A DNA stretch of 64,000 bases from Candidatus Staskawiczbacteria bacterium RIFOXYD1_FULL_32_13 (GTDB lineage Bacteria; Patescibacteriota; Minisyncoccia; Minisyncoccales; Staskawiczbacteraceae): positions 30,904 through 94,903 of the forward strand of contig MHPU01000039.1 of the NCBI GenBank assembly GCA_001820485.1, in the 5' to 3' direction. Shown piece by piece: positions 5,189 to 62,290 of this stretch. The position numbers were made by a program, and so were the translations under genes. Position 1 is the first letter of the stretch; each line of letters opens with the position of its first letter. The notes below the pieces were generated by a model. The model had not been told where the DNA came from, did not search any database, and saw nothing but the letters and a program-made list of their open reading frames with translations.

Positions 5189-5189
5189 A

Positions 5190-12567: not shown

Positions 12568-12579
12568 ATTACTAAAAAT

Positions 12580-16140: not shown

Positions 16141-16141
16141 A

Positions 16142-16972
16142 ATGGATTATAAAACACCGGAAAATAAGAGCGAAAATAAATTACATAAAAAGTGGTGGTT
16201 TTGGATTGTGGTTGCAATGGTATTATTGAGTTTGATTAACAATAGATCTGAAAAGAAAGCAATAATAGAGAAAGGTAATTTAGCAAACTCGCAACAGGCA
16301 GAAGAAATAATTGATAATGATGAAGAGGAGTTAATTGATAATTCTGATAAAGAACTTTATGAGGTTGTAAAAGTTGTTGATGGCGACACCATCAATGTAA
16401 ATATAAATGGCAAAGTGGAAACATTAAGGCTAATTGGGATAAATACTCCGGAAACAGTTGATCCAAGAAAGGCAGTGATATGTTTTGGTAAAGAAGCATC
16501 TGATAAAGCAAAGCAGTTGCTAACAAATAAAAAGGTTCGTTTAGAAGGCGATGCAACGCAAGGAGAAAGAGATAAATATCAAAGACTTTTGCGTTATGTG
16601 TGGTTGGAAGACGGAACATTTTTTAATAAACTTATGATAAGTGAGGGTTATGCTTTTGAATATACCTACGATACTATTTACAAATATCAAGCAGAATTCA
16701 AACAAGCAGAAATAAGTGCAAGAACATCAAAAAAAGGATTGTGGGCTGATAATGTTTGTGACCAAACAAAAGTGCAAACTCCTGTTCAAATAATAACAAG
16801 CCAACCAGCAGATACAAGCAAAATTAACTGTTCGTCAAATACTTATAACTGCACAGATTTTAAGAGACAAAAAGAAGCTCAACAAGTATTTGATTTTTGT
16901 GGAGGAGTAAATAATGATATTCACAAACTTGATGCAGATAAAGACGGGCTTGTTTGTGAAAGTTTGCCTTGA
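16142..16972 (+). CDS. Membrane-anchored thermonuclease (SNase) homologue with a C-terminal Excalibur Ca-binding domain
   Basis: There is an N-terminal TM (WWFWIVVAMVLLSLI). The SNase core reads VVDGDTI...RLIGINTPE...RYVWLEDG. The C-terminus has DADKDGLVCE, an Excalibur DxDxDGxxCE motif. Confidence 0.75.
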   Translation: MDYKTPENKSENKLHKKWWFWIVVAMVLLSLINNRSEKKAIIEKGNLANSQQAEEIIDNDEEELIDNSDKELYEVVKVVDGDTINVNINGKVETLRLIGINTPETVDPRKAVICFGKEASDKAKQLLTNKKVRLEGDATQGERDKYQRLLRYVWLEDGTFFNKLMISEGYAFEYTYDTIYKYQAEFKQAEISARTSKKGLWADNVCDQTKVQTPVQIITSQPADTSKINCSSNTYNCTDFKRQKEAQQVFDFCGGVNNDIHKLDADKDGLVCESLP

Positions 16973-44303: not shown

Positions 44304-45332
44304 ATGACAAAATTAAATTACGCACAATTATATACAAAATTAACCAAAGGTCTTTCTCCAAAATCAAAGAATATTTTTGATAGACGTTTTGGAGTAAAAA
44401 ATGGTAAACCAGAAACCTTAGAATCAATAGGGGATTCTTTGCATATTACCAGAGAAAGAGTTAGGCAGATTGAAGAAGTTGGTTTTAACTTTGTAAGAAA
44501 AAATAATCAAGAAACTTTAGATAAAGTTTTTAAAGAATTTGTTGATTATTTTACCAAAAATGGTGGTTTAAGACGTGAGGATTTAGTACTTGAAGAATTA
44601 GGAGGTAAGAAAAATAAACCATTTGTTTTATTCTTTTTAACAATTTCTGATTTGTTTACTAGAGTTTGTGAGAAAAAAGACTTTTTCTATTTTTGGTCAA
44701 TAATTCCAGATGCTAAAAATAAAGTTAAAGAAACTTTAGATTCTCTAGTAAAAGATATTGATGTAGTTGGAAAAGTTATGGCTAGAAAAGATGTGATTGT
44801 TTCTTTTGCTTCAAAAAATAATTTAAGTAATGAGGCTGTTTCTTCTTATCTTGAAATTTCCAAAAATATTCAGACAAATAGAGAAGGGAAATTGGGTTTG
44901 GTTCACTGGCCAGAAATAAAACCAAGAGGTGTAAAGGATAGAGCATTTTTAACTTTTAAGAAACATGGCAAACCTTTGCATTTTACAGATGTAGCTAAAA
45001 TGATTGATAAATTGGAATATAATCAGCCAAATAAAAAAACTTATGCTCAAACAGTGCATAATGAACTGATTAAGGATTCAAGATTTGTTTTAGTGGGTAG
45101 GGGCACTTATGCTTTATCAGAATGGGGATATACTCCAGGAACAATTAAAGATGTTATTATTAAAGTATTGCAAACCAAAAATCAACCAACACATAAAGAT
45201 GAAATTGTTAAGGAAGTTTTGTCTCAAAGAATGGTTGCAAAAAATACAGTGCTTATGAATTTGAACATCAAAAATAATTTTGATAAAGATGATAAAGGAA
45301 ATTATTTTATCAGAAAAATCGAATCAGTGTAA
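44304..45332 (+). CDS. Sigma-70 region-4-like HTH protein with C-terminal HARE-HTH domain
   Basis: The N-terminal sigma70_r4-like segment reads TLESIGDSLHITRERVRQIEEVGF. The C-terminal segment LHFTDVAKMIDKL...TVHNELIKDSRFVLVGRGTYALSEWGY fits HARE-HTH. Confidence 0.5.
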   Translation: MTKLNYAQLYTKLTKGLSPKSKNIFDRRFGVKNGKPETLESIGDSLHITRERVRQIEEVGFNFVRKNNQETLDKVFKEFVDYFTKNGGLRREDLVLEELGGKKNKPFVLFFLTISDLFTRVCEKKDFFYFWSIIPDAKNKVKETLDSLVKDIDVVGKVMARKDVIVSFASKNNLSNEAVSSYLEISKNIQTNREGKLGLVHWPEIKPRGVKDRAFLTFKKHGKPLHFTDVAKMIDKLEYNQPNKKTYAQTVHNELIKDSRFVLVGRGTYALSEWGYTPGTIKDVIIKVLQTKNQPTHKDEIVKEVLSQRMVAKNTVLMNLNIKNNFDKDDKGNYFIRKIESV

Positions 45333-45516
45333 AAGTACATAAATAAAAGTGTGACTACTGTCACGTTTTTATTTTGTAAAAATAAATATCGCAAGAAAGT
45401 AGCGATCGCCATTTTTGTGCGATAATAATTTTTATTTTATAGCTTGTTTGTTGATTTTAAAATCTGTGAGGAGTATAATAATATAATGAATTTGAAATTT
45501 AAAATTTGAAATTTTA

Positions 45517-45735
45517 ATGAATTATTTTTTTATTGGTTTATATATTTTATTGGCACTTACAGCAGTTTATTATATTGTATTTTTTGCATTACTTTATTAT
45601 TGGCATGAGAAAAAAGCTACTTTTGTAGTAGTTCCTATAATCTTTACATTTTACTTTTTTGCAATAGGTTTTTTAATTGTTTCTATTATCTCATTAGCTA
45701 TTGAATATTTACCAAGTTTTTTAAATAATTTATAA
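45517..45735 (+). CDS. Small 2-TM membrane protein
   Basis: It is 72 aa and almost entirely hydrophobic. Confidence 0.35.
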   Translation: MNYFFIGLYILLALTAVYYIVFFALLYYWHEKKATFVVVPIIFTFYFFAIGFLIVSIISLAIEYLPSFLNNL

Positions 45736-45753
45736 AATTATTTTTTTAAAAAA

Positions 45754-47154
45754 ATGGCAAGCAAAATTTACAAAACATATTTTTTCTTTATGCCTTGGGC
45801 AAGGAAGGCATTTTGGGATCCTTTTTGGTGGGCGATTTTATTTGTAGTAATTTTGTTTATTCCTTTTTTAAGACCTTGGGGATGGTTTTTTCTTCCAATG
45901 ATGTTAATTGTGCAACTAAAAGAACTTTATCTTTGGTGGATAATGTGGGATTTTACTTATGCAAAATTCAAATGGGTAGTAATTGAAATGATTCCACCAA
46001 AAGAAGTTTTGGCTCCGTTTAAAGCTATGGAAGATGTTTTTACTAGTCTTTGGCCAATATATGATTCTGGTAATTGGCGTGAGCAGTGGTGTGAGGGAGA
46101 ATTTGCTGAATCAGCATATTGGTTTTCTTGGGAAATTGTAAGTGCTGAAGGATCGGTCCATTTTTATTTAAGATGTCTTGCTCAGCATAGAAGGACTATA
46201 GAATCAATTATTTATGGTCATTATCCGGAAATAGAAATGCGTGAAGTGCCTGATTACTTAAAAGCTATTCCGCAAGATATACCCAACCAAGAGTGGGATT
46301 TGTATGGAGAAGATTGGATGTTTGAAAAAATAGATTGTTATCCTATTAGAACTTATGAAAAGTTTTTTGAGCCACAAGGCGAAAGGATTTCAGCAGAGGA
46401 AAAAAGAATAGATCCAATGGCCTCCTTACTTGAAGGGCTTTCTAGATTAGGTCCAGGTGAGCATTTTTGGATTCAATTTATTACAACTCCAGTTGTTGAT
46501 TCTGAAGTTGGACTTAATGCAATAGCAAAAAAAGAAATTGATAGAATTGCGAGGCGACCTGTTAAAAAAGAGAAAACATTTCTGCAAGATATAGGAGATT
46601 TGTTATATTACTTGATTATGGGACCTACAAAAGAGGGTAGTGGCGAAAAAGCAACTTATAAATTTCTCCCAAGAGTAATGGAGGATGAAGGTGATGATAA
46701 TGAGCTTATGTTAACTCCTGGAGAAAAAGAAGTTTTACTTGGTATTGAAGATAAAATGAAAAAGCCAATTTTTAAATGTTCTGTGAGAGGTGCTTATGTA
46801 GCTAAAAGGGAGAATTGGAGCGGGGCAAGTAAAAATGCTGGGAGAGGTTATTTTGGGCATTTTAAAACAATGCATTTAAATGCTCTAAGATATACTGGTG
46901 ATACAAGACCAAAGACTCATTATCTTTTTAGAAAAAGAAGAGCATATTTTAGAGCAAGAAAAATGTTTAGAAATATTGTTCGTCGTTTTCCTGCAATGTA
47001 TCCAGATATGAAAGCATATACAATACTTTTAAATTCTGAAGAATTGGCAACATTATTTCACTTTCCAAATAAACTTACAGGACTTGTTTCTCCATCAGTG
47101 GCAAGGGTGGAATCAAAGAGAGGTGGACCTCCAGAAAATTTGCCAATAGAATAA
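45754..47154 (+). CDS. Membrane-anchored hypothetical protein (2 N-terminal TM helices and a ~400-aa soluble domain)
   Basis: The N-terminus is rich in W/F with two TM helices, and the remainder is basic and aromatic with no known motif. It is the first gene of the zinc-ribbon paralog locus. Confidence 0.5.
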   Translation: MASKIYKTYFFFMPWARKAFWDPFWWAILFVVILFIPFLRPWGWFFLPMMLIVQLKELYLWWIMWDFTYAKFKWVVIEMIPPKEVLAPFKAMEDVFTSLWPIYDSGNWREQWCEGEFAESAYWFSWEIVSAEGSVHFYLRCLAQHRRTIESIIYGHYPEIEMREVPDYLKAIPQDIPNQEWDLYGEDWMFEKIDCYPIRTYEKFFEPQGERISAEEKRIDPMASLLEGLSRLGPGEHFWIQFITTPVVDSEVGLNAIAKKEIDRIARRPVKKEKTFLQDIGDLLYYLIMGPTKEGSGEKATYKFLPRVMEDEGDDNELMLTPGEKEVLLGIEDKMKKPIFKCSVRGAYVAKRENWSGASKNAGRGYFGHFKTMHLNALRYTGDTRPKTHYLFRKRRAYFRARKMFRNIVRRFPAMYPDMKAYTILLNSEELATLFHFPNKLTGLVSPSVARVESKRGGPPENLPIE

Positions 47155-47179
47155 AAAGCTATGTAATCATAAGTAAAAT

Positions 47180-47284
47180 CAGTGTCATTGCGAGCCCCGC
47201 TATAGCGGGGCGTGGCAATCTAGAGTTTGCATATAAAATTCTGGATTGCCACGCTCGCCTGCAGGCTCGCTCGCAATGACACTG
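47180..47284. repeat. 105-bp copy of the MITE-like palindromic repeat (extended TIR CAGTGTCATTGCGAG...CTCGCAATGACACTG)
   Basis: It lies between the 466-aa gene and paralog P1. The internal arms CGTGGCAATCTAGAG and CTGGATTGCCACG pair with each other. Confidence 0.7.
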
Positions 47285-47315
47285 CTACTATTGTTAAAAT
47301 AATTATTTAATTTAT

Positions 47316-49049
47316 ATGCAAAGCGAAACAAAAACACATTCGACAAGCTCAGTGCAAGCTTGTCAAAATTGCAAAAATGACTTTACCATAGAGCCTGATG
47401 ATTTTGTATTTTATGAAAAAATGAAAGTCCCAGCTCCTACTTTTTGTCCGGAGTGTAGGATTATAAGAAGAATGACTTGGAGAAATGAGCGCACACTTTA
47501 TCATAGAAAGTGCGATGCCACTGGAAAAAATATTATTACAATGTTTGCTCCAGAACAGCCGGTTGTTGTTTATGAAAGGGATTATTGGTGGAGTGATTCT
47601 TGGGATCAGCTAGCTTCAGGTCAAGATTATGATTTTTCAAAACCATTTTTTCAGCAATTCCGCGAGCTTTTTGAAAAAGCTCCACTTTCTAATCTTGCTA
47701 ATACTAATATTGTAAATTCTGATTACTCAAATCATAGTTTGAATCTGAAAAATTGTTATCTTTTTTATGCTGGCATGAGATGCGAAGATATGTTATATTC
47801 TACTGGAGCTATGGATTGTAAAAATTCTATTGATCTATATAATGTGGGAAATTTAATACAATGTTACGACGATACTTTGTGTGGAGATCTAAATCGCGTT
47901 TCTTTTTCATATGATAGCGACGAAAGCGTAAATTGTGCATTTTTACATGCGTGCAAAAATATGATGGATTCTTTGGGATGTATAAATTTGCGTAATAAAT
48001 CAAATTGCATTTTTAATCAGCAATATACCAAAGAAGAATATGCAAAAGAACGCGCCAAATACGATTTTGGTAGTTATAAAAATCTTGAGGGATTTAAGAA
48101 AAAATTTGTAGAGTTTAAAAAGCAATATCCGCGACGCCATGGTTTTATTCATAAATGTGCAAATACAATTGGAGACAATATCATAAATTGCAAAAATATT
48201 TATATGGGCTTTGATATTTTTGGAGATGCTCAAGACAGTAAGTACGTTATTCATGGCGCAGAATTTAATAATATTTATGATGGATATGGAATTGGTGCAA
48301 CTCATAGTAACTCCTATGAAATTGTAGACACGGGCGATAATGCCACACTTAATCGGTTTGCTGTTTTTACTCATTCATGTCTAGACACACATTATACTTA
48401 CGCCTGTAAAAATTCCCAAAACTTATTTGGTTGTGTGGGGCTTCGCAGTAAAAGATATTGCATTTTAAATAAACAATATACCAAAGAAGAATATGAGACT
48501 CTGGTGCCAAAAATTATTAATCATATGAATGAAATGCCCTATATTGATGCAAAAGGTAGAGTTTATAAGTATGGCGAGTTTTTCCCAACAGAACTTTCAC
48601 CTTTTGCTTACAATGAAACTATTGCTCAAGAATATTACTCAAAAACTAAGGAAGATGTTTTAGAATCTGGTTTTAGGTGGAGAGAGCCAGAAACAAAAAA
48701 CTATAACATAACCTTAAAACCGCAAGATTTACCAGATCACATAAAGGACGTAACAGATGATATTTTAAATCAAGTAATAGCTTGTGAGCATGAAGGTAAA
48801 TGTAATCACCAATGTATGGGAGCTTTCAAAATTATTGCTTCTGAACTTGCATTTTACCGTGCAATGAATTTGGCTTTGCCAAGGTTGTGTTCTAATTGTA
48901 GGCACTATGCCAGGCTAGCTCAGCGCACGCCGTTTAAGTTGTGGGATAGAAATTGCGCAAAATGTGGAAAAGAAATTAAAACTTCTTATGCACCAGAAAG
49001 GCTAGAAATTATATATTGTGAAAGTTGTTATAATAATGAAGTAGCGTAA
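47316..49049 (+). CDS. Zinc-ribbon-rich paralog P1 (577 aa), unknown function
   Basis: The N-terminal ribbon reads CQNCKNDFTIEPDDFVFYEKMKVPAPTFCPECRIIRR. There are internal duplicated Cys-rich units (...C.NLRNK.NCIFNQQYTKEEY / ...FGCVGLRSKRYCILNKQYTKEEY). The C-terminal ribbons read CSNCRHY...CAKCGKEIKTSYAPERLEIIYCESCYNNEVA. Confidence 0.6.
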   Translation: MQSETKTHSTSSVQACQNCKNDFTIEPDDFVFYEKMKVPAPTFCPECRIIRRMTWRNERTLYHRKCDATGKNIITMFAPEQPVVVYERDYWWSDSWDQLASGQDYDFSKPFFQQFRELFEKAPLSNLANTNIVNSDYSNHSLNLKNCYLFYAGMRCEDMLYSTGAMDCKNSIDLYNVGNLIQCYDDTLCGDLNRVSFSYDSDESVNCAFLHACKNMMDSLGCINLRNKSNCIFNQQYTKEEYAKERAKYDFGSYKNLEGFKKKFVEFKKQYPRRHGFIHKCANTIGDNIINCKNIYMGFDIFGDAQDSKYVIHGAEFNNIYDGYGIGATHSNSYEIVDTGDNATLNRFAVFTHSCLDTHYTYACKNSQNLFGCVGLRSKRYCILNKQYTKEEYETLVPKIINHMNEMPYIDAKGRVYKYGEFFPTELSPFAYNETIAQEYYSKTKEDVLESGFRWREPETKNYNITLKPQDLPDHIKDVTDDILNQVIACEHEGKCNHQCMGAFKIIASELAFYRAMNLALPRLCSNCRHYARLAQRTPFKLWDRNCAKCGKEIKTSYAPERLEIIYCESCYNNEVA

Positions 49050-51588: not shown

Positions 51589-51672
51589 GTCATTGTGAGG
51601 AGGTTTACAAACCGACGAAGCAATCTCAACGACTAGATTGCCACGCTCGCTTGTGGGCTCGCTCGCAATGAC
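51589..51672. repeat. 84-bp copy of the MITE-like palindromic repeat (variant TIR GTCATTGTGAGG)
   Basis: It reads GTCATTGTGAGGAGG...GACGAAGCAATCTCAAC...CTAGATTGCCACGCTCGC...GCTCGCAATGAC and overlaps the 5' end of cutA. Confidence 0.65.
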
Positions 51673-51682
51673 AATGATAACG

Positions 51683-52330: not shown

Positions 52331-54064
52331 ATGGATAGTCAAACAAAAAATTGTCAAAATTGCAAGAAAGACTTTACTATAGAATCCGATGATTTTGCAT
52401 TTTATGAAAAAATGAAAGTCCCTGTGCCAACTTTTTGTTGGAAATGCAGAGCAATTAGAAGAATGTGTTTTCGAAATATGCGACAACTTTATATTAGAAA
52501 CTGTGATGCAACAGGTAAAAAAATATTTACTTTAATGCCTCCGGATAATCCGATGCCGGTTTATGATAATGATTATTGGCGTAGCGATGCTTGGGATCCT
52601 ATGAAATACGAAAAAAATTACGATTTTTCAAATGCGTTCTTTGAGCAAATAAAGGAATTATATAATTCTGTTCCATGGGGAATTATGTGGAGTATGGATA
52701 TGGTTAATTGTGAGTATAGTGGTGGGGTTTCCTTTTCTAAAAATTGTTATATGTGTTTTGATTCTGGATACGATGAAGATTGTATGTATAATGTTACAGT
52801 GCTCTATAGCAAAAAATGCCTTGATAGTATAAATTTAAAAGATTGCGAACTTTGTTATTATTGTATTAATACCAATAAGTCATATAAAACATTATTTTCA
52901 CGAAATTGTACTTCTTGTGTAGATGTATGGTTTAGTCAAGATTGTATCGGATGTACAAATTGTTTTGGGTGCAGTGGCTTAAAAAATAAAAGTTATTATA
53001 TTTTTAACGAAGTTTATGACAAGGCGACATACGAAACGAAAATTGCAGATTTAAAACTTGATAGTTGGTCGGGAATAAAAAGTGCCAAGAATCAGGCAAA
53101 AAATTTTTGGGAAAAATGTTCGGTAAAATTTTATCATGGCACTCAGGTAACAAAAAGTTTTGGAGATTATTTATATAATGGTACGGAATTAAGAAACTGT
53201 TTTTTTGTGGGAAATGCGCAGAATATGAAACACTGTCAAAGTGTAATTTATCCCCCAAATCAAGACAGTATGGATGTTACCTCAAGCGAAGGCACTGAAT
53301 TGGCTTATGAGGTATTTTGTTGTGGCAATGGAGTACGTAGATCGATTGGATTGGCTGAATGCTCTAATGTATATGATGCTTATTATTCAATAAACTGCAG
53401 GCAGTCAAATAATTTATTTGGATGCGTGTCTTTAAAAGGTAAGGAATATTGTATCTTAAATAAACAATATACGAAAGAAAAATATCTGGAAATGATTCCT
53501 AAAATTATAAAGCATATGAATGATATGCCATATATTGACGCGCTTGGAAGGGTTTATAAATACGGAGAATTTTTCCCAACGGACATGAGTTCTTATGGCT
53601 ATAATCAATCGCAGGCATTTGAATATTTTCCGATAAATGAGCAAGAAGCCAAAAAACAAGGATATCGTTGGCATGAGGCCAATGAGAGAAGTTACCAAAT
53701 CACTAAAAAATCAAGTGACTTACCAGAAAAAATAGAAGAAGTAAGTGACGAAATTTTAAAAGAAGTTATTCAATGTGAGCACGATGAATTTAAAAAACAT
53801 AAAGATGGATGTAATTTAGAGTGCACCCGCGCTTTTAAGATAACATTACAGGAATTGCAATTTTATAGGCAGATGGATCTACCTTTACCGAGGCTTTGTT
53901 TTAACTGCAGACATATTGATAGGGTTGCTTGGAGAAATCAACCAAAATTATATAAAAGAAAATGTATGAAACCAGGATGTCAAAATGAATTTGAAACTTC
54001 TTACGCTCCCGACAGACCAGAAATAGTTTATTGCGAAGCTTGCTACAATCAAGAAGTTGCATAA
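52331..54064 (+). CDS. Zinc-ribbon-rich paralog P2 (577 aa)
   Basis: It has the same architecture as P1: CQNCKKDFTIESDDFAFYEKMKVPVPTFCWKCRAIRR ... CFNCRHIDR...CMKPGCQNEFETSYAPDRPEIVYCEACYNQEVA. Confidence 0.6.
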   Translation: MDSQTKNCQNCKKDFTIESDDFAFYEKMKVPVPTFCWKCRAIRRMCFRNMRQLYIRNCDATGKKIFTLMPPDNPMPVYDNDYWRSDAWDPMKYEKNYDFSNAFFEQIKELYNSVPWGIMWSMDMVNCEYSGGVSFSKNCYMCFDSGYDEDCMYNVTVLYSKKCLDSINLKDCELCYYCINTNKSYKTLFSRNCTSCVDVWFSQDCIGCTNCFGCSGLKNKSYYIFNEVYDKATYETKIADLKLDSWSGIKSAKNQAKNFWEKCSVKFYHGTQVTKSFGDYLYNGTELRNCFFVGNAQNMKHCQSVIYPPNQDSMDVTSSEGTELAYEVFCCGNGVRRSIGLAECSNVYDAYYSINCRQSNNLFGCVSLKGKEYCILNKQYTKEKYLEMIPKIIKHMNDMPYIDALGRVYKYGEFFPTDMSSYGYNQSQAFEYFPINEQEAKKQGYRWHEANERSYQITKKSSDLPEKIEEVSDEILKEVIQCEHDEFKKHKDGCNLECTRAFKITLQELQFYRQMDLPLPRLCFNCRHIDRVAWRNQPKLYKRKCMKPGCQNEFETSYAPDRPEIVYCEACYNQEVA

Positions 54065-54126
54065 GAGTAAATGTATAGGTTTAACTGTATATTGTATAGA
54101 TTTATAATTTGTGATATAATATAAAT

Positions 54127-54855
54127 ATGATAGAAAATAATGAAGAATTATTAACTATTGGAGAAACAGCAGAATTATTGGGCGTTTCAATTATGACTTT
54201 AAGACGCTGGGATGAAAGTGGTCGGCTGATTTCTGTTAGAAAAAAAGAAGGTGGAAATAGGTATTACAGAAAATCAGATGTTGATATTTTTTTAAGTGAT
54301 TTGTTTAAAATTGCCAAAGAATGGGTTTTGAAAGAAAGTGATTTGCCAGAAAGTTTTTATTGTCAAAATAGCGCTGTTTTTCAAGCACGACTTGCAAAAA
54401 TGGAAAATTTGATGATTGCAAATAGAATGACAGAAGACTTTGCTTCTCGTATTGTTTCAATCGCCGGTGAAATTGGGAATAACTCATTTGACCATAATTT
54501 AGCTCAATGGCCCGATGTCCCTGGAATTTTCTTTGCTTTTGATTTAAATAAAAAACAACTTGTTTTAGCTGACAGGGGATTGGGAGTTTTTAAAACCTTA
54601 AAAAGAGTAAAGCCAGAAATTGAAAATGACAAGCAGGCTTTAGAAGTGGCATTCACTGAAATTATTTCTGGCAGGGCTCCAGAAGAAAGGGGTAATGGTT
54701 TAAAATATGTAAAATTCATTATTTCTAAAAATAATATAAATTTATTTTTTCAAACAGGAGGTGCAATATTAAATTTAAATGCCAATAGTTCTAGCTTGAA
54801 AATATCAGAGGCAAAAGATAATTTTCACGGATGTTTGGTTTTAATAAAATGGTAA
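54127..54855 (+). CDS. MerR-type HTH fused to a GHKL/HATPase_c (RsbW/SpoIIAB-like anti-sigma-factor kinase) domain
   Basis: The N-terminal HTH reads LTIGETAELLGVSIMTLRRWDESG. The C-terminal N-box is EIGNNSFDH, the G1 LADRGLG, and the G2 ERGNGL. Confidence 0.55.
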   Translation: MIENNEELLTIGETAELLGVSIMTLRRWDESGRLISVRKKEGGNRYYRKSDVDIFLSDLFKIAKEWVLKESDLPESFYCQNSAVFQARLAKMENLMIANRMTEDFASRIVSIAGEIGNNSFDHNLAQWPDVPGIFFAFDLNKKQLVLADRGLGVFKTLKRVKPEIENDKQALEVAFTEIISGRAPEERGNGLKYVKFIISKNNINLFFQTGGAILNLNANSSSLKISEAKDNFHGCLVLIKW

Positions 54856-55136
54856 TTGAATTAAAAAAAATTGGAACAACTTTAATTTCACGTCAAACCG
54901 GTAAAGAGGCTTTTTTAGCAATACAACCAATTCTTCAAAATTTGAAAAGTGATGAAAAGGTAGAAATTGATTTTGAAGGTGTGATGACTTTTTCTCCATC
55001 ATGGGGGGCGGAATTTTTAATGCCACTTTTTAAAAAGTATGGACAAAATTTAATTTTAAAAAACACTCATAATGGTTCAGTACAATCAACATTGGAATTT
55101 CTAGAACAAATTGAAAATATAAAATTTAAAAAATAA
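54849..55136 (+). CDS. STAS-like (anti-sigma-antagonist-like, DUF4325-type) small protein, copy 1
   Basis: It is 95 aa and reads MVIELKKIGTTLISRQTGKEAF...VEIDFEGVMTFSPSWGAEFL. It overlaps the upstream HATPase gene by 7 nt. Confidence 0.45.
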   Translation: MVIELKKIGTTLISRQTGKEAFLAIQPILQNLKSDEKVEIDFEGVMTFSPSWGAEFLMPLFKKYGQNLILKNTHNGSVQSTLEFLEQIENIKFKK

Positions 55137-55184
55137 AGTGTTAATTGTTACATATCAGGTTAATGAGCATTAACTTAAAATTTT

Positions 55185-56918
55185 ATGAATTCAGAAATTA
55201 AAAACTGCCAAAATTGTAAGCAAGAATTCACAATTGAATCTGAGGATTTTGATTTTTATGAAAAAGTGAAAGTCCCTGCGCCAACTTTTTGCCCCGAATG
55301 TAGAATGCAAAGAAGAATGATTTTTATGAATGAAAGAGCATTATATAAGCGTCAATGTGATTTATGCCATAAAGATGTTATTTCAGTATTTCCTGCAAAC
55401 GCAACCCATCCGGTTTATTGTACTCCTTGTTGGTGGTCTGATAATTGGAACCCATTAATTTATGGCAAGGATTACGATTTTTCTAAATCTTTTTTCCAGC
55501 AGTTTAAAGAACTAATGTCGGTTTTTCCGTGGCCGGCGCTTGATACTATTGAGCCATCAATGGTAAATAGTCCTTATTGTAGTATTAGTTCTTACCTTAA
55601 AAACTGTTATTTTTTTCATAATTCAGATTACAGTGAAAATTCTGCTTATGGGGCTTTTACAGAGCGCGCAAAAGATTCATATGACCTTTTTACAATTGAT
55701 GGTTGTGAGCAATGTTATGAGGGTGTAAATCTTGTAAACTGTAACTGTGCATTGTTTTCTATGAATTGTGAAAATTGTCACAATGTTTCTTTTTCAAGAG
55801 ATCTTACAGGTTGCTCTTATTGTTTTGGATGCATTAATTTGCGAAACAAAAACTATTATATTTTTAATGAACCGTATAGTAAAGAAGAATATTTTTCAAA
55901 ATTAAAAACATTTGATGCTGGTTCGTATAAAGCAGTTCAGGGTGTTAAAGAAAATGCAAAATCATTGTTTTTAAAATCTCCAAGGCGCTTTGCTCACTCG
56001 CGTAGAAACTCAAAAACAACTGGAGAATATGTTAATCAATCCAAGAATACTCAATTTGCTTATCAAGTTATTGGCGCTGAAGATTCAAAGTATGTGCATT
56101 TTCTAATTATTGCCCCAACAAAAGATAGTTATGATCTTACAATGTGGGGTGGAAATGCCAATCGACTCTATGAATGCATGGGGTGTGGTGGAGGTCAGGA
56201 TGATGTAAAATTTTCTTATGGTTGTTGGTCTGATGCAACAATGAATCTTGAATATTGTATGGTTGTAAAAGTGCCATGTACAAATCTTTTTGGATGTATT
56301 GGCTTAAGAAGAAAATCTTATTGTATACTTAACAAGCAATATACAAAAGAGGAATATAATTTATTGTGCGACAAAATAATTAAACACATGAATGATGCAC
56401 CTTTTATTGATAAGCTAGGAAAAGTTTATAAGTATGGTGAATTTTTTCCTGCAGAACTTGGTCAGTTTGCGTACAATGAAAGTGTTGCTCAACAATTTTT
56501 TCCTTTAGATAAGCAAGAAGCTATAAAGCAGGGCTATAATTGGAAAGACTCTGAAGAAAGAAATTATAAAATAGATTTAAAATCGCAAAATTTGCCAGAC
56601 CACATAAAAGATGTTTCAGATGACATAGCGGGTAAAGTTATTGAGTGTGCTCATAAAGGGGAGTGTAATGAGCAATGCACAACTGCTTATAAAATTATTC
56701 CACAAGAACTGCAATTTTATAAAAAAATGGATTTACCTTTGCCTAGATTGTGCCCAAACTGTAGACATTATCAAAGACTGGCTCAAAGAAATCCAATTAA
56801 ACTTTGGCATAGGCAGTGCATGAATGTGGGGTGTAAAAATGAATTTGAAACAAGCTATGCTCCAGATAGGCCAGAGATTATTTACTGTGAAACATGCTAT
56901 AACAACGAAGTGGCATAA
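55185..56918 (+). CDS. Zinc-ribbon-rich paralog P3 (577 aa)
   Basis: It reads CQNCKQEFTIESEDFDFYEKVKVPAPTFCPECRMQRR ... CPNCRHYQR...CMNVGCKNEFETSYAPDRPEIIYCETCYNNEVA. Confidence 0.6.
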   Translation: MNSEIKNCQNCKQEFTIESEDFDFYEKVKVPAPTFCPECRMQRRMIFMNERALYKRQCDLCHKDVISVFPANATHPVYCTPCWWSDNWNPLIYGKDYDFSKSFFQQFKELMSVFPWPALDTIEPSMVNSPYCSISSYLKNCYFFHNSDYSENSAYGAFTERAKDSYDLFTIDGCEQCYEGVNLVNCNCALFSMNCENCHNVSFSRDLTGCSYCFGCINLRNKNYYIFNEPYSKEEYFSKLKTFDAGSYKAVQGVKENAKSLFLKSPRRFAHSRRNSKTTGEYVNQSKNTQFAYQVIGAEDSKYVHFLIIAPTKDSYDLTMWGGNANRLYECMGCGGGQDDVKFSYGCWSDATMNLEYCMVVKVPCTNLFGCIGLRRKSYCILNKQYTKEEYNLLCDKIIKHMNDAPFIDKLGKVYKYGEFFPAELGQFAYNESVAQQFFPLDKQEAIKQGYNWKDSEERNYKIDLKSQNLPDHIKDVSDDIAGKVIECAHKGECNEQCTTAYKIIPQELQFYKKMDLPLPRLCPNCRHYQRLAQRNPIKLWHRQCMNVGCKNEFETSYAPDRPEIIYCETCYNNEVA

Positions 56919-57018
56919 AGGCATAAAATGTGGACTTTTGGGCTATAATGTGGTATTATAATCGTATATTATGTTAAAAATAACATAATTTAAGAATATA
57001 CTTAATAAATACAAGATT

Positions 57019-57633
57019 ATGCAATTTATTGAATTTAAGCAACAATTAAGTAATTTTGTAGCTTTTGATCTTACTGATATAAGGAAAATCCAAGCAGATT
57101 TTGATTTACGTAGATTGTCTGAGTGGCAAGATAAGGGCTATATTAAAATGATCCGCAAGGGTTATTATATTTTTTCTGATTTAGAAATTAATGAGCAGGT
57201 TTTGTTTTTAATTGCAAACAAAATTTATGAGCCATCATATGTTTCCTGCGAAATGGCATTATCTTTTTATGGACTTATCCCAGAAGGAGTTTATTCCATA
57301 ACTTCAATTACAACTAAGAATACAATTAAGTTTAGCACACCTATCGCGGAATTCTCATATCGCAAGGTAAAGCCGGAATTATTTTTTGGGTATAAGTTGC
57401 TAAAGATAGAAAATCAACAATACAAAATTGCAGAAATTGAAAAGACAGTTTTAGATTATTTATATTTAAACCCACAAATGCAGAATGATGCTAATTTTTC
57501 TGAATGGCGTTTTAATGCCCAAGATTTTTTGGCTAAAGCAGATTTGGCAAAGTTTAATGATTATTTAAAGGTTTTTAGCAATAAGCAATTAAACAAGCGA
57601 GTAGAAAAGTTTTTAAACTTTATTAAGCAATAA
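57019..57633 (+). CDS. AbiEi-like antitoxin/transcriptional regulator (type IV TA)
   Basis: The N-terminal AbiEi_4-like domain reads LSEWQDKGYIKMIRKGYYIF. The gene lies immediately upstream of an AbiEii nucleotidyltransferase. Confidence 0.55.
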   Translation: MQFIEFKQQLSNFVAFDLTDIRKIQADFDLRRLSEWQDKGYIKMIRKGYYIFSDLEINEQVLFLIANKIYEPSYVSCEMALSFYGLIPEGVYSITSITTKNTIKFSTPIAEFSYRKVKPELFFGYKLLKIENQQYKIAEIEKTVLDYLYLNPQMQNDANFSEWRFNAQDFLAKADLAKFNDYLKVFSNKQLNKRVEKFLNFIKQ

Positions 57634-57637
57634 GTTT

Positions 57638-58414
57638 ATGTTAACTCTTCAGCAAATTGAAAAGCAATATCCTGAAAACTTACAACCATTTAAGCGGGGA
57701 ATTTTACGCGAATATTTGCAATACAAAATTTTAGAGATTATTTTTTCTTCCAAGTTTGCCAACAAACTTTCTTTTATGGGTGGAACGGTTTTGCGACTTA
57801 TTTATGGAAACACAAGATTTTCAGAAGATTTAGATTTTGACAATTTTGCCTTGTCTGAAAAAGAGTTTGACGAGTTGTCTGGAATAATTAAAAAGAGCTT
57901 GGAATTACAGGGATTAAAAACAGAAATTAGTACAGTTGCCAAAGGAGCATTTAGGTGCAATATACGATTGCCGGAAATTTTGTTTGAGAATAATCTTTCT
58001 TTATTTAAGGAAGAGAAGATTTTAATTCAAGTGGATTCGTTTGCTCAAAATTTTGATTATAAGCCTGAGAAAAAAAACTTGAACAAATTTGATGTGTTTT
58101 CTGAAATTTTTATAACTCCGCCGGACATTTTACTTTCTCAAAAGATTTATGCAATTTTTAATCGCAAAAGAGCAAAGGGCAGGGATTTTTATGATATTGT
58201 GTTTTTACTTTCTTTTACTAAACCAAATTATAAATATTTAAAACAAAAATTGGATATTAATTCGCCCGAAGAATTAAAAAGAAAAATTATTTCCCTTTCT
58301 GTTGATTTAAATTTTGAGGAATTGGCAAAAGATGCAGAAATGTTTCTTTTTTCTGGGCAAGATAGCAAAAAAATTAAGTCATTTGTTGATTATATTAAAC
58401 AAATTGAATTATAA
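57638..58414 (+). CDS. AbiEii/AbiGii-family nucleotidyltransferase toxin (DUF1814)
   Basis: LREYLQYKILEII...FMGGTVLRLIYGNTRFSEDLDFD fits the pol-beta NTase GG[ST]x9-13DxD motif of the AbiEii family. Confidence 0.7.
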   Translation: MLTLQQIEKQYPENLQPFKRGILREYLQYKILEIIFSSKFANKLSFMGGTVLRLIYGNTRFSEDLDFDNFALSEKEFDELSGIIKKSLELQGLKTEISTVAKGAFRCNIRLPEILFENNLSLFKEEKILIQVDSFAQNFDYKPEKKNLNKFDVFSEIFITPPDILLSQKIYAIFNRKRAKGRDFYDIVFLLSFTKPNYKYLKQKLDINSPEELKRKIISLSVDLNFEELAKDAEMFLFSGQDSKKIKSFVDYIKQIEL

Positions 58415-58420
58415 AAAATT

Positions 58421-60184
58421 ATGGAATTTCAAAACCATTCGCCTGAGGGCTCAGGGCAAGCTAAAAATTGTCAAAACTGTAAGAAAGACTTTACCATAGA
58501 GCCTGATGATTTTGCATTTTATGAAAAAATTAAAGTACCTGTGCCAACTTTTTGTTCAGAGTGTAGAATGCAACGTAGATTGCTTTTTCGTAGTGAACGT
58601 TTTTTGTATAAACGTAAAAGCGATTTTTCTGGTAAGGAAATATTTTCTATGTGGCCACAGGAAAGCGATACTAAAGTTTATGAAAACAGCGTTTGGTTTT
58701 CTGATAAGTGGGATGCACTTGAGCACGGTAAAGATTATGATTTTTCTAAACCATTTTTTGAACAACTTTTAGATTTACGAAAAAATGTTCCAATCTACGC
58801 TTTATCAACTACGCTTGGAGTAGACAGTGATTATTGCAATAATTTTACAGCATTAAAGAATTGCTATTTAGTTTTTTCTTCTAATTATTCTGAAGATTGT
58901 ATGTATGGCACTGGAATAAATCATTCAAAAAACTGTATTGATAACATCAAGGTATTTAAAAGTGAAAATTGTCATGAAAATTTTTTTGTTAATTCCTCTT
59001 TCAATGTTTTCTTTTCTGCTCAATGTTCAGATTCAATGAATATTTGGTTTTGCAAGGATTGTGTGGGGTGTAACGATTGCATTGGATGTATTGGTTTGCG
59101 AAATAAAAGCTATTATATTTTTAATAAACCTTATACAAAAGAAGAATATCAAGCTGAATTTCAAAAATTTAATTTTGCTTCATATCAGGCGATGAAAGAT
59201 TTTTCTAAAAAAGTCCACGAATTTTGGCTTAAATTTCCAGTAAAGTATATGCAGGGTCTGAAGAACTCTAATGTTAGTGGAGAATATATAAAAAATTCAA
59301 AAAATGTTTTAAATTCATACTTAGTTTCTGGTGGTGAAAATTTGAGATATTGTAGTGAAATTAATGTTGAGCCAGTTAAAGATTGTTATGATTATTCTGT
59401 TTGGGGAGATAAGGCCGAGTTAGTTTATGAGTGCATGTCTTGTGGGCTAGGTGTAAACAACATAAAATTTTGTGCAGAGTGTTGGCCTGACTTTAGAGAT
59501 TCAGAATATTCTCTTTTTTGTCAATCATCATCAAATCTTTTTGGGTGTGTTGGTGTAAGAAAAAAAGAATATTGTATTTTAAATAAGCAGTACACAAAAG
59601 AAGAATATGAGCGCTTAAAAGAAAAGATTATCAAACATATGAAAGAAATGCCATATAAGGATGCAAGTGGCATGTTGTATAGTTATGGTGAATTTTTCCC
59701 TGGAATATTTTCTGGTGTGTTCTACAATAATTCTTTGGCTCACGAACACTTTCCATTAACAAAAACAGAAGCTGAAAGAAAAGGATATTTTTGGAAAGAT
59801 GAAACAAAACGTGCTTATGTTGTAACCAAAAAGTATAGTGACTTGCCAGATGACATTAAAGAGGTTCCAGTTTCGATTACTAGTGAAATTATTTCTTGCC
59901 AAGAATGGGAAGAAAACCAAGATATTGCAGTTCAGCACAATTGTACCGAAGGGTTTCGTATACTTGTCTCGGAATTGGAATTTTACAAAAAGTTTTCTTT
60001 ACCACTTCCTAGAAGGTGCCCTAACTGTAGATACCACGAACGTATAAAATGGCGCAACCCAATGAAGTTATGGCATAGAAAATGTATGAAACCTGGTTGC
60101 AATAATGAATTTGAAACATCTTATGCGCCAGATAGGCCAGAGATTGTATATTGTGAAACATGCTATAATAATGAAGTTGCATAA
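58421..60184 (+). CDS. Zinc-ribbon-rich paralog P4 (587 aa)
   Basis: It reads CQNCKKDFTIEPDDFAFYEKIKVPVPTFCSECRMQRR ... CPNCRYHER...CMKPGCNNEFETSYAPDRPEIVYCETCYNNEVA. Confidence 0.6.
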   Translation: MEFQNHSPEGSGQAKNCQNCKKDFTIEPDDFAFYEKIKVPVPTFCSECRMQRRLLFRSERFLYKRKSDFSGKEIFSMWPQESDTKVYENSVWFSDKWDALEHGKDYDFSKPFFEQLLDLRKNVPIYALSTTLGVDSDYCNNFTALKNCYLVFSSNYSEDCMYGTGINHSKNCIDNIKVFKSENCHENFFVNSSFNVFFSAQCSDSMNIWFCKDCVGCNDCIGCIGLRNKSYYIFNKPYTKEEYQAEFQKFNFASYQAMKDFSKKVHEFWLKFPVKYMQGLKNSNVSGEYIKNSKNVLNSYLVSGGENLRYCSEINVEPVKDCYDYSVWGDKAELVYECMSCGLGVNNIKFCAECWPDFRDSEYSLFCQSSSNLFGCVGVRKKEYCILNKQYTKEEYERLKEKIIKHMKEMPYKDASGMLYSYGEFFPGIFSGVFYNNSLAHEHFPLTKTEAERKGYFWKDETKRAYVVTKKYSDLPDDIKEVPVSITSEIISCQEWEENQDIAVQHNCTEGFRILVSELEFYKKFSLPLPRRCPNCRYHERIKWRNPMKLWHRKCMKPGCNNEFETSYAPDRPEIVYCETCYNNEVA

Positions 60185-60241
60185 GAGTAAATGTATAGGT
60201 TTGACTGTATATTGTATAGATTTATAAAAAATGTTAATAAA

Positions 60242-60529
60242 ATGGTAATTGAATTAAAAAAAATTGGGACAACTTTAATTTCAAGGCAAACTGGCAAGGA
60301 GGCTTTTTTGGCAATACAGCCGATATTGCAAAGTGTAAAAAACGAGGAAATAGTTGAAATTGATTTTGAGGGCGTAATGACTTTTTCTCCTTCTTGGGGG
60401 GCAGAATTTTTAATGCCACTTTTTAAAAAATATGGGCAAATTTTAGTTCTGAAAAATACGCACAATGGCTCAGTTAGTTTAACAATTGAATTTCTAGAAC
60501 AAATAGAAAATATAAAATTCAAAAAATAA
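60242..60529 (+). CDS. STAS-like small protein, copy 2
   Basis: It is close to identical to copy 1 by eye, and its upstream 50 bp duplicate the 54062-54120 segment. Confidence 0.45.
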   Translation: MVIELKKIGTTLISRQTGKEAFLAIQPILQSVKNEEIVEIDFEGVMTFSPSWGAEFLMPLFKKYGQILVLKNTHNGSVSLTIEFLEQIENIKFKK

Positions 60530-60532
60530 ATT

Positions 60533-62290
60533 ATGGATAGCCAAACCCATTTGCCTGCGGGCTTAGGGCAAGCCAAAAACTGTCAGAATTGTAAACAAGA
60601 ATTCGTCATTGAGAGCGATGATTTTGCATTTTATGGAAAAATAAAAGTTCCACCACCAACCTTTTGTCCGGATTGTAGATTACAGAGACGTCTTATATTT
60701 AGAAATGAGCATTTTTTATATAAAGTAAAAAGTGATTTTTCTGGCAAGGATATTTTTTCTATGCAACCTAGAGAAGGTGGATTAAAGATTTATGAGAATG
60801 ATGTGTGGTACTCTGATCAATGGAGCGCAACTAATTTTGGAATGGAGTATGATTTTTCTAAACTGTTTTTTTTCCAACTCAACAAATTACTTCGTACTGT
60901 GCCAATTTTTGCACTTTCTGTAATTCGCGGAGTAAACAGTCCTTATTCTAACAACTTCGATGGATTTAGAAATTGTTATTTGTGTTTTAATGGAAATTAT
61001 TGCGAAGATTGTATGTATGGTGTTACATTGAGTAATTCTAAAAATTCTTTAGATCTCTCTGCATGCTCAAAATGTGAAAATTGTTATGAAAGTTTTTGGC
61101 TTGAATCTTGCACGAATTGTTTTTATTGCAATCAATGTTCTGATTCTTTCAATTTATGGTTTTGTAAAAATTGCGTTGGTTGTAATGATTGTTTTGGTTC
61201 AGTTAATTTGCGAAATAAAAAATACTGTATATTTAACCAACAATATACAAGAGATCAATATATCGTAAAAATAAAAGAATTTAATATGGATTCGTACGCA
61301 TCTGTCTTACAAGTTATGAATGAAATCAATGCTTTTTGGTTGCGACATCCTGTAAAATTTTTGCAAGGTTTAAAAAATATGAATGTTTCTGGTAATTATG
61401 TTTATAATTCTAAAAATGCAAAAAACTCTTTCTTAATTCGAGAGGCTGAGAATGTTCGTTATTGTTCTTATATGGAAATTGGCCCATTACGTGATTGTTA
61501 TGATTATACTGTATGGGGGAATGGAGCAGAGCTTCTTTATGAAGCACTTAATACTGGTCTTGGCGCACATAATGTAAGGTTTTCTGCAGAATGTTGGCCA
61601 GAAGTGCGTAACATAGAATATTCGCTTTTTTGTCAGTCATCATCTAATCTTTTTGGATGTGTTGGTTTACGTAATAAACAATATTGTATTTTAAATAAAC
61701 AGTATACAAAAGAAGAATACGAAGCGCTTGTGCCTAAAATTATTGAACATATGAATGAAATGCCTTACGTTGATCCAAAAGGTAATTCTTATTGCTATGG
61801 TGAATTCTTTCCACCAATGATGTCACTTTATGCATATAATCATAGTCCCGCACAAGAACATTTTCCTATGATTAAAATTCAGGCTGAAGCGATTCAATGT
61901 TTTTGGATAGATTCTGAAGACCGAGGCTATCAAATAACAAAAAAATCATCAGAGTTACCCGATTCTATTAATGATGTAGATGATATAATAACTAAAGAAA
62001 TTATTTTATGCGAAGAATGGGGTAAAAATGAAGAAAAAGCAAAATTGAATAATTGTACCAAAGCATTTCGAATTTTGTCCAATGAATTGGAATTTTATCG
62101 TCGTTATAATATCCCTTTGCCTAGAAAATGTTTTTATTGTCGTCACAATAATCGTATTAAAAATAGAAATCCTTTTAAGTTGTGGAATCGTCAATGCACT
62201 AAATGTGGGAAAGAATTTGAGACAAGTTATGCTCCAGATAGGCCTGAGATTGTGTATTGTGAAACGTGCTACAACCAAGAAGTTGCTTAA
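60533..62290 (+). CDS. Zinc-ribbon-rich paralog P5 (585 aa)
   Basis: It reads CQNCKQEFVIESDDFAFYGKIKVPPPTFCPDCRLQRR ... CFYCRHNNR...CTKCGKEFETSYAPDRPEIVYCETCYNQEVA. Confidence 0.6.
   Translation: MDSQTHLPAGLGQAKNCQNCKQEFVIESDDFAFYGKIKVPPPTFCPDCRLQRRLIFRNEHFLYKVKSDFSGKDIFSMQPREGGLKIYENDVWYSDQWSATNFGMEYDFSKLFFFQLNKLLRTVPIFALSVIRGVNSPYSNNFDGFRNCYLCFNGNYCEDCMYGVTLSNSKNSLDLSACSKCENCYESFWLESCTNCFYCNQCSDSFNLWFCKNCVGCNDCFGSVNLRNKKYCIFNQQYTRDQYIVKIKEFNMDSYASVLQVMNEINAFWLRHPVKFLQGLKNMNVSGNYVYNSKNAKNSFLIREAENVRYCSYMEIGPLRDCYDYTVWGNGAELLYEALNTGLGAHNVRFSAECWPEVRNIEYSLFCQSSSNLFGCVGLRNKQYCILNKQYTKEEYEALVPKIIEHMNEMPYVDPKGNSYCYGEFFPPMMSLYAYNHSPAQEHFPMIKIQAEAIQCFWIDSEDRGYQITKKSSELPDSINDVDDIITKEIILCEEWGKNEEKAKLNNCTKAFRILSNELEFYRRYNIPLPRKCFYCRHNNRIKNRNPFKLWNRQCTKCGKEFETSYAPDRPEIVYCETCYNQEVA

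Follow-up and report, generated by a model that had tools for sequence, protein, structure and literature searches.

A Kinase-Deleted Duplicate of a Two-Gene HTH-GHKL and STAS-Like Cassette in Candidatus Staskawiczbacteria and Its Predicted Relationship to CapK/CapS

Organization of the Locus

The window analyzed here is a stretch of 64,000 nt from Candidatus Staskawiczbacteria bacterium RIFOXYD1_FULL_32_13 (contig MHPU01000039.1, positions 30,904 to 94,903; GC content 31%), a member of the Candidate Phyla Radiation (CPR), or Patescibacteria. The same sequence, without differences, is carried by contigs of a Candidatus Staskawiczbacteria population from aquifer metagenomes. Between 47 and 62 kb, the window harbors five Cys-rich paralogs of 577–587 aa, named P1 to P5, together with two TrwB/VirD4-like ATPases, a CutA-like gene, a small helix-turn-helix (HTH) gene, and an AbiEi/AbiEii pair. 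Among these genes lie two copies of a self-contained cassette, which consists of an operator-promoter, a gene for an HTH-GHKL protein (hereafter the kinase gene, after its predicted function), and a gene for a STAS-like protein of the DUF4325 family, all on the forward strand; the first copy is complete, and the second has lost the kinase gene. In cassette 1, the operator and promoter (54065–54126) precede the HTH-GHKL gene (242 aa, 54127–54855), whose stop codon overlaps the start of STAS1 (95 aa, 54849–55136) in the sequence ATGGTAA. In cassette 2, the operator and promoter (60185–60230) are followed by a mini-open reading frame (mini-ORF) encoding MLIKW (60231–60248), and by a solo STAS-like gene, STAS2 (95 aa, 60242–60529), whose product is identical to that of STAS1 at 85/95 positions. 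In public gene calls, STAS2 is lengthened to 112 aa (60191–60529) and runs through the operator; homology with all orthologs places its start at 60242, and the differing start calls form separate database entries (P0122–P0125).

The two copies were compared by affine-gap pairwise alignment and in register; MAFFT misaligned them across the indel. The left shared block is 54/55 identical (54053–54107 vs. 60173–60227), and its 43-bp intergenic part, located after P2 (54065–54107) and after P4 (60185–60227), is 42/43 identical. The right block (54841–55137 vs. 60234–60530) is 251/297 identical (84.5%), with 34/34 matches over its first 34 nt and 217/263 (82.5%) over the other 263 nt. Between the blocks, copy 1 has 733 bp (54108–54840) carrying the 242-aa gene, whereas copy 2 has AAAATG alone (60228–60233). 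A preliminary description of the window, made from the sequence, had reported an intergenic segment of ~50 bp repeated almost exactly and a 242-aa gene restricted to copy 1. The alignment bears out both points and sets the breakpoints at 54107/60227, where the shared blocks end, and at 54841/60234, where they resume. The same description had the STAS-like gene duplicated almost exactly, which does not hold: 46 nt and 10/95 residues differ, with a synonymous divergence (dS) of 0.94. As the two-copy layout is found on at least 24 independent contigs, an assembly artifact is ruled out.

The HTH-GHKL Protein

The N-terminus of the 242-aa protein (aa 8–56) is a MerR-type winged HTH, as first proposed (Pfam MerR, E 1.3e-11, 44.5 bits for a cut-off of 28.2). 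For aa 5–58, the best PDB sequence match is BldC (6AMA/6AMK) and the best NCBIfam match is the BldC model. Helices at aa 59–98 connect the HTH to the C-terminal half (aa ~100–242), which is predicted to be a minimal GHKL (Bergerat) domain with an intact ATP-site signature. In the AlphaFold2 (AF2) model (mean predicted local distance difference test score, pLDDT, 86), this half is a compact alpha/beta domain with a disordered, low-confidence lid at aa 182–189. All 50 top Foldseek matches in the PDB are GHKL domains, and 204 matches reach E ≤ 1e-3. The N-box E115xxN118N119xxxH123, the G1 box D149RGLG153, and the G2 box R188GNGLK193, motifs already quoted in the preliminary description, are invariant in 79 homologs.

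At the sequence level, the C-terminal domain gave no significant Pfam, NCBIfam, or PDB match, whether searched as a single sequence or as profiles of 37 and 79 sequences, and the window protein does not match Pfam HATPase_c or HATPase_c_2 at E ≤ 0.1. HATPase_c_2 matches three members of the family (2/37 in one alignment and 1/79 in another) and HATPase_c_5 four (4/79), all with E 0.03–0.14; the marginal Pfam matches are restricted to these two kinase-type families. A match of the GHKL domain to hemoglobin (E 0.001) was rejected as spurious. We compared the GHKL profile with the Ser-kinase CapK, whose sequence, like those of CapS and VapS, was taken from the supplement of PMC13373217. The two align over 115 columns with 28% identity (hhalign 92%, E 6.8e-7), against 0.8% for the SpoIIAB control (sequence checked against 1TIL). 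The motifs E-x3-N-x2-D-H, DxGLGxxxTLKR, and RGxGLK are common to CapK and the CPR GHKL domains. Pfam barely detects even the GHKL domain of CapK (E 0.042). When the full-length profile is used, its alignment with CapK is restricted to the GHKL domain, and ~40 residues, forming two helices, separate HTH and GHKL in the CPR protein. Judged by these alignments, the C-terminal domain is specifically related to CapK. Of the anti-sigma-type GHKL kinase initially proposed, the GHKL fold is thus retained on the strength of Foldseek, but the affiliation to the HATPase_c/SpoIIAB family is not, given the missing Pfam match and the hhalign value of 0.8%.

The structural comparison can also be read differently. 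Its top matches (E ~1e-5) are the ATPases Hsp90/TRAP1, topoisomerase II, and GyrB, not protein kinases, and the GHKL domain might be an ATPase or an ATP-dependent conformational clamp, like those of Hsp90, MutL, or MORC. The STAS-like protein would then be a non-phosphorylated regulatory or ligand-binding partner, and autoregulation through the HTH would be kept. The ExxxNxxD motif (here E115...N119..D122) is also the signature of GHL ATPases, "GNGLK" resembles the G2 boxes of the Hsp90/MORC type, and many STAS domains are never phosphorylated. We nevertheless consider this interpretation unlikely. In the AF2 model, the Bergerat fold extends to the C-terminus, and no transducer domain follows that could supply the catalytic Lys/Arg needed by GHL ATPases. 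Its sole significant sequence relative is a proven Ser-kinase, its marginal Pfam matches are to kinase-type families only, and its partner carries an invariant Ser at the position phosphorylated in CapS.

The family is small and isolated, since among 1.84 billion clusters at 50% identity only 289 match at E ≤ 1e-3. It is common in the CPR, with more than 4,500 clusters at 90% identity, all from Patescibacteria, and at least 556 species genomes from many lineages. The GHKL domain and the W...YCxxRDxFxARL helix preceding it recur in other proteins (P0231, P0234, P0243, P0264, and others; P0241; P0260), whose forms include proteins of ~190 aa without the HTH, proteins with a different, ArsR/MarR-like winged HTH (wHTH), and an N-terminal fusion to a cytidylyltransferase-like domain. 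The N-terminal output module of these GHKL proteins is exchangeable.

The STAS-Like Partner

STAS1 and STAS2 are single-domain proteins that pass the gathering threshold of Pfam DUF4325 (28.0 and 24.0 bits, respectively, for a threshold of 23); no significant match to a STAS family of Pfam was obtained for the pair. In the AF2 model (pLDDT 96), the best fold matches are STAS domains (template modeling score, TM, 0.6–0.65). The threshold and the fold matches agree with the STAS-like nature assigned earlier to the 95-aa protein. A weak PDB match of the STAS profile to 9Z7O led us to VapS, a strong DUF4325 member (62.7 bits, E 2.7e-17), to which the CPR profile aligns with an hhalign value of 85% (E 6e-6). 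Phosphorylatable residues are present at the start of helix 2, where Ser51 is 100% conserved and position 49 is Ser or Thr in 99% of the sequences. In the alignment with CapS, Ser51 pairs with the phosphorylated Ser54. STAS2 keeps all the invariant residues in an intact frame.

A Conserved Direct-Repeat Operator

Upstream of the kinase gene, cassette 1 has two direct repeats 21 bp apart, r1 TGTATAGGTTT (54072–54082) and r2 TGTATAGATTT (54093–54103), a promoter-like TTAACT (54081–54086)-16-TATAAT (54103–54108), and a second, extended −10 element TGATATAAT (54112–54120), 6 nt before the ATG. Cassette 2 has r1 at 60192–60202, r2 at 60213–60223, and TTGACT (60201–60206)-16-TATAAA (60223–60228), and has no counterpart of the extended −10 element that lies further downstream in cassette 1. 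The A-to-G change from TTAACT to TTGACT was considered as a compensation for the lost promoter and rejected, as related species also have G at this position. In the 64-kb window, the TGYATAG dyad is found only at 54072/54093 and 60192/60213.

Distant CPR genomes carry two direct repeats TGTATAG(A/G)TTT upstream of the kinase gene, likewise 21 bp apart. Over 77 loci, sites with at most one mismatch reach 6.9/kb in the 150 nt upstream versus 0.015/kb elsewhere, and the modal spacing of site pairs is 21 bp (24/42). Forty-seven loci lack two canonical sites; 41 of them carry a variant, mostly TGCATAG, as 10-mers that are identical at 9–10 of 10 positions and lie 20–21 bp apart, whereas 3% of shuffled controls reach 9/10 and none 10/10. 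The direct-repeat architecture (TGYATAG core, 20–21 bp apart) is found in ~71/77 CPR loci (~92%). When metagenome contigs were scanned without bias for the exact dyad, 79 of 120 clusters were located ≤250 nt upstream of an HTH-GHKL homolog; the non-kinase dyads correspond mostly to long terminal repeat retroelements, coding repeats, or very AT-rich DNA. Promoter spacers measure 16–17 bp, and the operator is a direct repeat, not a palindrome. The repeats flank or overlap the −35 box, fill the spacer, or sit between the promoter and the start codon. Because they overlap the promoter or the first transcribed bases, repression is favored, and we infer that the HTH-GHKL protein binds the predicted operator and autoregulates its expression. 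Much of the 42/43 intergenic identity between the two cassettes is accounted for by this segment being a conserved operator.

Some dyads occur in other settings. On L108 (reverse complement, 1978–2009), one lies upstream of a NYN-domain gene just 3′ of the kinase-STAS operon; a NYN gene is also found near this operon in L001. On L128 (1551–1625), three repeats spaced by 21 bp precede the gene of a 74-aa basic protein. Both cases are suggestive, and the NYN-domain gene and the 74-aa gene are possible regulon members. On two contigs of high GC content (54–58%), L094 (2101–2132) and L133 (3437–3468), the same AT-rich dyad, AAATGTATAGATTT-N-AAATGTATAGATTT, is conserved, with no HTH-GHKL homolog detected nearby.

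A CPR-Wide Operon with Variable Neighbors

The STAS-like gene is adjacent to the kinase gene in 79 of 80 CPR genomes, the exception being a contig end, and the proteins of the pair are 50–90% identical across many CPR lineages. Within ±4 kb of these 79 loci, we found no conserved third gene, the most frequent neighbor occurring in four loci. Neighboring genes are variable and often housekeeping, such as those encoding AspRS/SerRS (L001), SecDF with a sigma-like gene (L008), and MreC. No PIN/VapC toxin gene lies downstream of the STAS gene, which is followed here by the Cys-rich paralogs and elsewhere by unrelated genes. Neither a sigma factor nor a PP2C phosphatase was found in the same ±4-kb intervals, to which the search was confined. 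The module is therefore a CPR-wide two-gene operon with variable neighbors, not peculiar to the paralog array. The preliminary description had presented the two genes as partner-switching-like regulators inside this array. They do sit among the paralogs, but as one instance of a widespread module, and classical partner switching is not supported, as the pair is accompanied neither by a sigma factor nor by any other third partner that is conserved.

In a related species (L008/L009, 9297–10315), the cassette directly follows a sigma70_r4/HARE-HTH gene and precedes a gene for a 74-aa protein and a DUF8128-like gene. The matching slot in the window (44304–47154) is empty; the cassette is found ~8 kb further on (54065–55136), amid the paralogs. 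Within a syntenic region, it thus changes position together with its own operator.

Such mobility, together with the variable genes around the locus, AbiEi/AbiEii included, would suit a sensor of the defense or toxin–antitoxin type, similar to VapKSC or CapKS, that serves a nearby effector (the Cys-rich paralogs, AbiE, or the ATPases resembling those of type IV secretion systems). The closest characterized relatives of the pair indeed control immune operons or a VapC toxin (PMC13373217), and the HTH matches the mad1 model of MADS (5.7e-15) and, weakly, DrmA. We regard this possibility as very unlikely, since no gene is conserved beside the pair, its neighbors elsewhere are housekeeping genes, and its identity across CPR lineages is unlike that of patchy, fast-evolving defense genes. 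Moreover, the operator dyad is present nowhere else in the window, and the STAS proteins have no PADLOC match.

Origin and Age of Cassette 2

Cassette 2 is a deletion derivative, that is, the full cassette minus kinase codons 2–238, in frame, and minus 15–16 bp of proximal promoter. Its mini-ORF, ATG-TTA-ATA-AAA-TGG-TAA, joins the kinase start codon in frame to codons 239–242 and the stop codon (54841 − 54127 is a multiple of 3) and keeps the overlapping stop/start junction with STAS2. Because copy 2 retains the ATG and the last four kinase codons with their stop, in frame, the kinase gene was deleted from copy 2; its insertion into copy 1 is ruled out by this remnant. The comparative data agree with a deletion, the STAS-like gene lying directly 3′ of the HTH-GHKL gene in all the sampled genomes but one. 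No second or solo STAS copy was found at other loci of the 80 CPR genomes, and none of the 120 dyads of the metagenome scan is directly followed by a STAS gene without a kinase gene.

STAS1 and STAS2 are 84.5% identical in nucleotides and 89.5% in amino acids, with dS 0.94, nonsynonymous divergence (dN) 0.07, and dN/dS 0.07. By these values, the two genes diverged long ago and both are under purifying selection. They argue against a recent recombination between paralog units, previously put forward as the origin of the two copies; the recent event at this locus is a separate 5.4-kb polymorphism described below. In the table of protein identities, the distance between STAS1 and STAS2 is about that of either to the orthologs of other Staskawiczbacteria, and because of this STAS2 may derive from an in-genome duplication or from an acquisition. 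Compared with these orthologs, STAS2 is identical at 77–83 of 95 positions and STAS1 at 84–85, STAS2 having more lineage-specific substitutions.

A different picture emerges from the sequences that flank the kinase deletion. These 89 nt (54053–54107 plus 54841–54874) are 88/89 identical, whereas the rest of the STAS repeat is 82.5% identical, which indicates a mosaic history. Selection on the operator explains part of this identity. However, the spacer between the operator repeats varies freely between species, yet is near-identical in cassettes 1 and 2. For this reason, it is likely either that gene conversion took place or that the kinase gene was deleted long after the two STAS genes had diverged. 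We also considered the 3′ ends of P2 and P4, which are ~80% similar, as part of the duplication. The P3/P5 and P3/P4 ends are equally similar and synonymous sites are saturated, and the likeness is ordinary paralog conservation.

That cassette 2 might be a decaying relic, with an unexpressed or functionless STAS2 and a duplication devoid of regulatory meaning, is an idea to which we give little credence: although the kinase gene is gone, as is the proximal extended −10 element, and STAS2 has accumulated more lineage-specific substitutions than STAS1, the STAS2 frame is intact with a dN/dS of 0.07 over a dS of 0.94, all invariant residues are kept, the operator is conserved at 42/43 positions next to a TTGACT-16-TATAAA promoter, the in-frame mini-ORF preserves the coupled start, and STAS2 is the only partner beside the kinase gene in a deletion variant of the same population.

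A 5.4-kb Presence/Absence Polymorphism

This variant is represented by two contigs of the population, L010 and L011, in which the order is P2-operator-kinase-STAS-P5. L010 matches the window with 0 mismatches in the 10,010 nt that end at 54840 and with 1 in the 3,767 nt that start at 60234; it corresponds to the window minus exactly 54841–60233 (5,393 bp), a segment missing from L011 as well. The segment, which is bounded by the two STAS repeats, contains STAS1, P3 (55185–56918), AbiEi (57019–57633), AbiEii (57638–58414), P4 (58421–60184), and the second copy of the operator. The sole STAS gene of L010 is of the STAS2 type (296/297), and the junction falls inside the 34-nt stretch identical in both repeats, an expected site for homologous recombination. 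The two STAS genes would act as 297-bp direct repeats, and recombination within their identical 5′ stretch would remove the 5.4 kb between them. Because the two-copy form was found on at least 24 contigs and the deleted form on two, the two forms are most simply explained by a deletion in a minority lineage; a Campbell-type integration, the opposite event, may also account for them. AbiEi/AbiEii (57019–58414), a complete type IV toxin–antitoxin pair (PADLOC 6e-62 and 3e-97), is lost in the deletion variant. Strains that are near-identical except for the number of STAS genes (one or two) and the presence of AbiE and two paralogs constitute a natural experiment.

Comparison with Characterized Systems

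CapK, with an HTH-STAS-GHKL organization, phosphorylates a conserved Ser of CapS (STAS-wHTH), which releases CapS from DNA (Chambers et al., EMBO J 2026, PMC13373217). Similarly, VapK phosphorylates the antitoxin VapS, and VapC is released; these relatives regulate immune operons or the VapC toxin, and the role of the HTH in CapK-type kinases was left unexplained (PMC13373217). Like CapK-CapS, the CPR pair combines a gene for a GHKL protein with an N-terminal HTH, placed directly upstream, with a gene for a STAS-domain partner, and the GHKL domains are homologous. CapK-CapS autoregulates its own promoter, and autoregulation is expected here from the predicted operator; the invariant Ser aligned with phospho-Ser54 of CapS makes phosphorylation of the CPR partner a prediction. 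The differences are in the domains. CapK has an internal STAS domain that senses single-stranded DNA through the W68 groove and is absent from the CPR protein. CapS is a repressor with a C-terminal wHTH that binds palindromes, whereas the CPR partner is a bare 95-aa STAS protein; the CPR pair has its sole DNA-binding domain on the kinase and a direct repeat as its operator. Finally, CapKS is located upstream of immune operons in Proteobacteria, whereas the CPR pair stands alone, with variable, often housekeeping neighbors.

VapK-VapS-VapC (VapS, PDB 9Z7O) resembles the CPR pair in having DUF4325 as a small STAS-only protein encoded after a CapK-like kinase. The CPR pair, however, has neither a PIN/VapC toxin nor the C-terminal inhibitory helix of VapS, and VapK consists of STAS and GHKL without the HTH found in the CPR kinase. 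SpoIIAB-SpoIIAA and RsbW-RsbV are comparable by their minimal GHKL domain (~140 aa) and their STAS protein of ~100 aa with a conserved Ser at the start of helix 2, but the hhalign value to SpoIIAB is only 0.8% and the CPR output is a fused HTH.

Regarding the HTH, BldC of Streptomyces (6AMA/6AMK) is likewise a MerR-like winged HTH without the coiled-coil dimerization helix, and it binds direct repeats as head-to-tail multimers (PMC5859096). It differs as a stand-alone protein of 68 aa, whereas the CPR HTH is fused to GHKL, scores 32 bits for an NCBIfam BldC cut-off of 77, and has repeats two helical turns apart. Contrary to classical MerR regulators, the CPR HTH is followed by GHKL and not by a coiled-coil or effector domain, and no palindrome is present in a 19–20 bp spacer. 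By sequence comparison, the pair belongs to the CapK/VapK-CapS/VapS radiation. It is apparently a new architecture of a kinase-STAS pair first characterized in 2026, undescribed for the CPR: in the searchable literature, DUF4325 is mentioned only in passing, and no paper was found linking DUF4325 or a STAS/GHKL/CapK module to the CPR.

Proposed Mechanism

We propose, with moderate confidence, that the cassette encodes an autoregulated kinase-substrate switch related to CapK/CapS in which DNA binding is carried by the kinase. The BldC-like HTH would bind the two direct repeats head-to-tail and repress its own bicistronic operon. The GHKL domain would bind the STAS-like protein and phosphorylate Ser51 (or Ser49). 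Binding and phosphorylation of the partner, as the complex forms or dissolves, would shift the occupancy of the operator by the HTH-kinase, and ATP or another signal would be converted into transcription by a self-limiting switch. The logic of CapK/CapS would be kept, with the DNA-binding domain moved from the substrate to the kinase. STAS2 would be co-regulated in trans by the same regulator and would raise the STAS:kinase ratio. Because the operator, the TTGACT-16-TATAAA promoter, and the coupled 5-codon leader ORF are retained, STAS2 is probably still expressed under this regulator. The phosphorylation switch wired directly to transcription of the preliminary description is a reasonable interpretation, consistent with the GHKL fold, the STAS-like partner, the HTH, the position of Ser51 at the phospho-site of CapS, and the precedent of CapK/CapS (PMC13373217).

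Several points, besides the structural matches to ATPases, weigh against this autoregulated switch. The STAS fold matches are statistically weak (E 0.14–1.5, TM ~0.6). The alignment with VapS is shifted by one residue, which places its phospho-Ser opposite Pro50 and makes the acceptor ambiguous. The role as a repressor, and not an activator, is deduced from operator position alone. The kinase activity and its acceptor residue, like the binding to DNA and the probable expression of STAS2, are predictions. We identified no phosphatase and no signal-sensing domain in the pair or around it, and the internal STAS domain by which CapK senses single-stranded DNA is absent.

A broader version, which we put forward only tentatively, is that of a phylum-wide master switch of the CPR. 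The kinase would be the operator-bound repressor and the STAS-like protein a phospho-titratable anti-repressor, a wiring inverse to that of CapK/CapS, and the regulon would extend beyond the promoter of the operon. If so, the switch may respond to ATP/energy or to host contact, and the dyads of the NYN-domain gene (L108) and of the 74-aa gene (L128) would be hints of its regulon. Solo STAS genes such as STAS2 would tune the switch by altering the dose of the partner, and populations with different set-points would arise as STAS copies recombine.

Surroundings of the Cassettes

The paralog array comprises five or six Cys-rich proteins of 574–587 aa that are ~60–67% identical at the nucleotide level (47316–49049, 52331–54064, 55185–56918, 58421–60184, and 60533–62290, with a further copy beyond the window at L004:17526–19250). 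They carry a zinc-ribbon-like motif CxxC...FY.K..(V/L)P.P..C..CR at both ends and internal repeats NLFGC.G.R.K.YCILN.QYTKEEY. Their homologs number more than 6,900, all annotated as hypothetical and all from Patescibacteria; searches against Pfam, NCBIfam, and PADLOC gave no match. The paralogs adjoin TrwB/VirD4-like ATPases carrying a related treble-clef finger (PF23477). GC-rich palindromic intergenic repeats, CAGTGTCATTGCGAGC...GCTCGCAATGACACTG, with 49-nt arms that are 78% complementary, are located at 47178–47287 and 51633–51679; at least two copies flank the P1/TrwB block, and they may be similar to repetitive extragenic palindromes or miniature inverted-repeat transposable elements.

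Elsewhere in the window, positions 5169–16972 form a probable defense island. It encodes a PLD-SNF2 helicase similar to DrmD/BrxH (6e-34), an Eco57I/MmeI methyltransferase resembling type IIG restriction-modification enzymes (3e-47), a 1,186-aa protein whose C-terminal part is Dsr1-like (5e-18), and an SNc+LTD nuclease-like protein (7e-49). A large serine recombinase is encoded at 24312–25934.

Implications for Regulation in the CPR

The genomes of CPR/Patescibacteria are tiny and encode few regulators; to our knowledge, almost nothing is known about transcriptional regulation in these bacteria. The duplication described here is in itself a local curiosity, and the wider interest lies in the module, a widely conserved CPR pair whose catalytic domain has no Pfam annotation. 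The predicted link with the CapK/CapS and VapK/VapS kinase-substrate systems offers a testable mechanism for this pair, and the conserved TGYATAG-N14-TGYATAG operator provides a concrete DNA target. A possible role for the HTH of CapK-type kinases emerges from this link as well.

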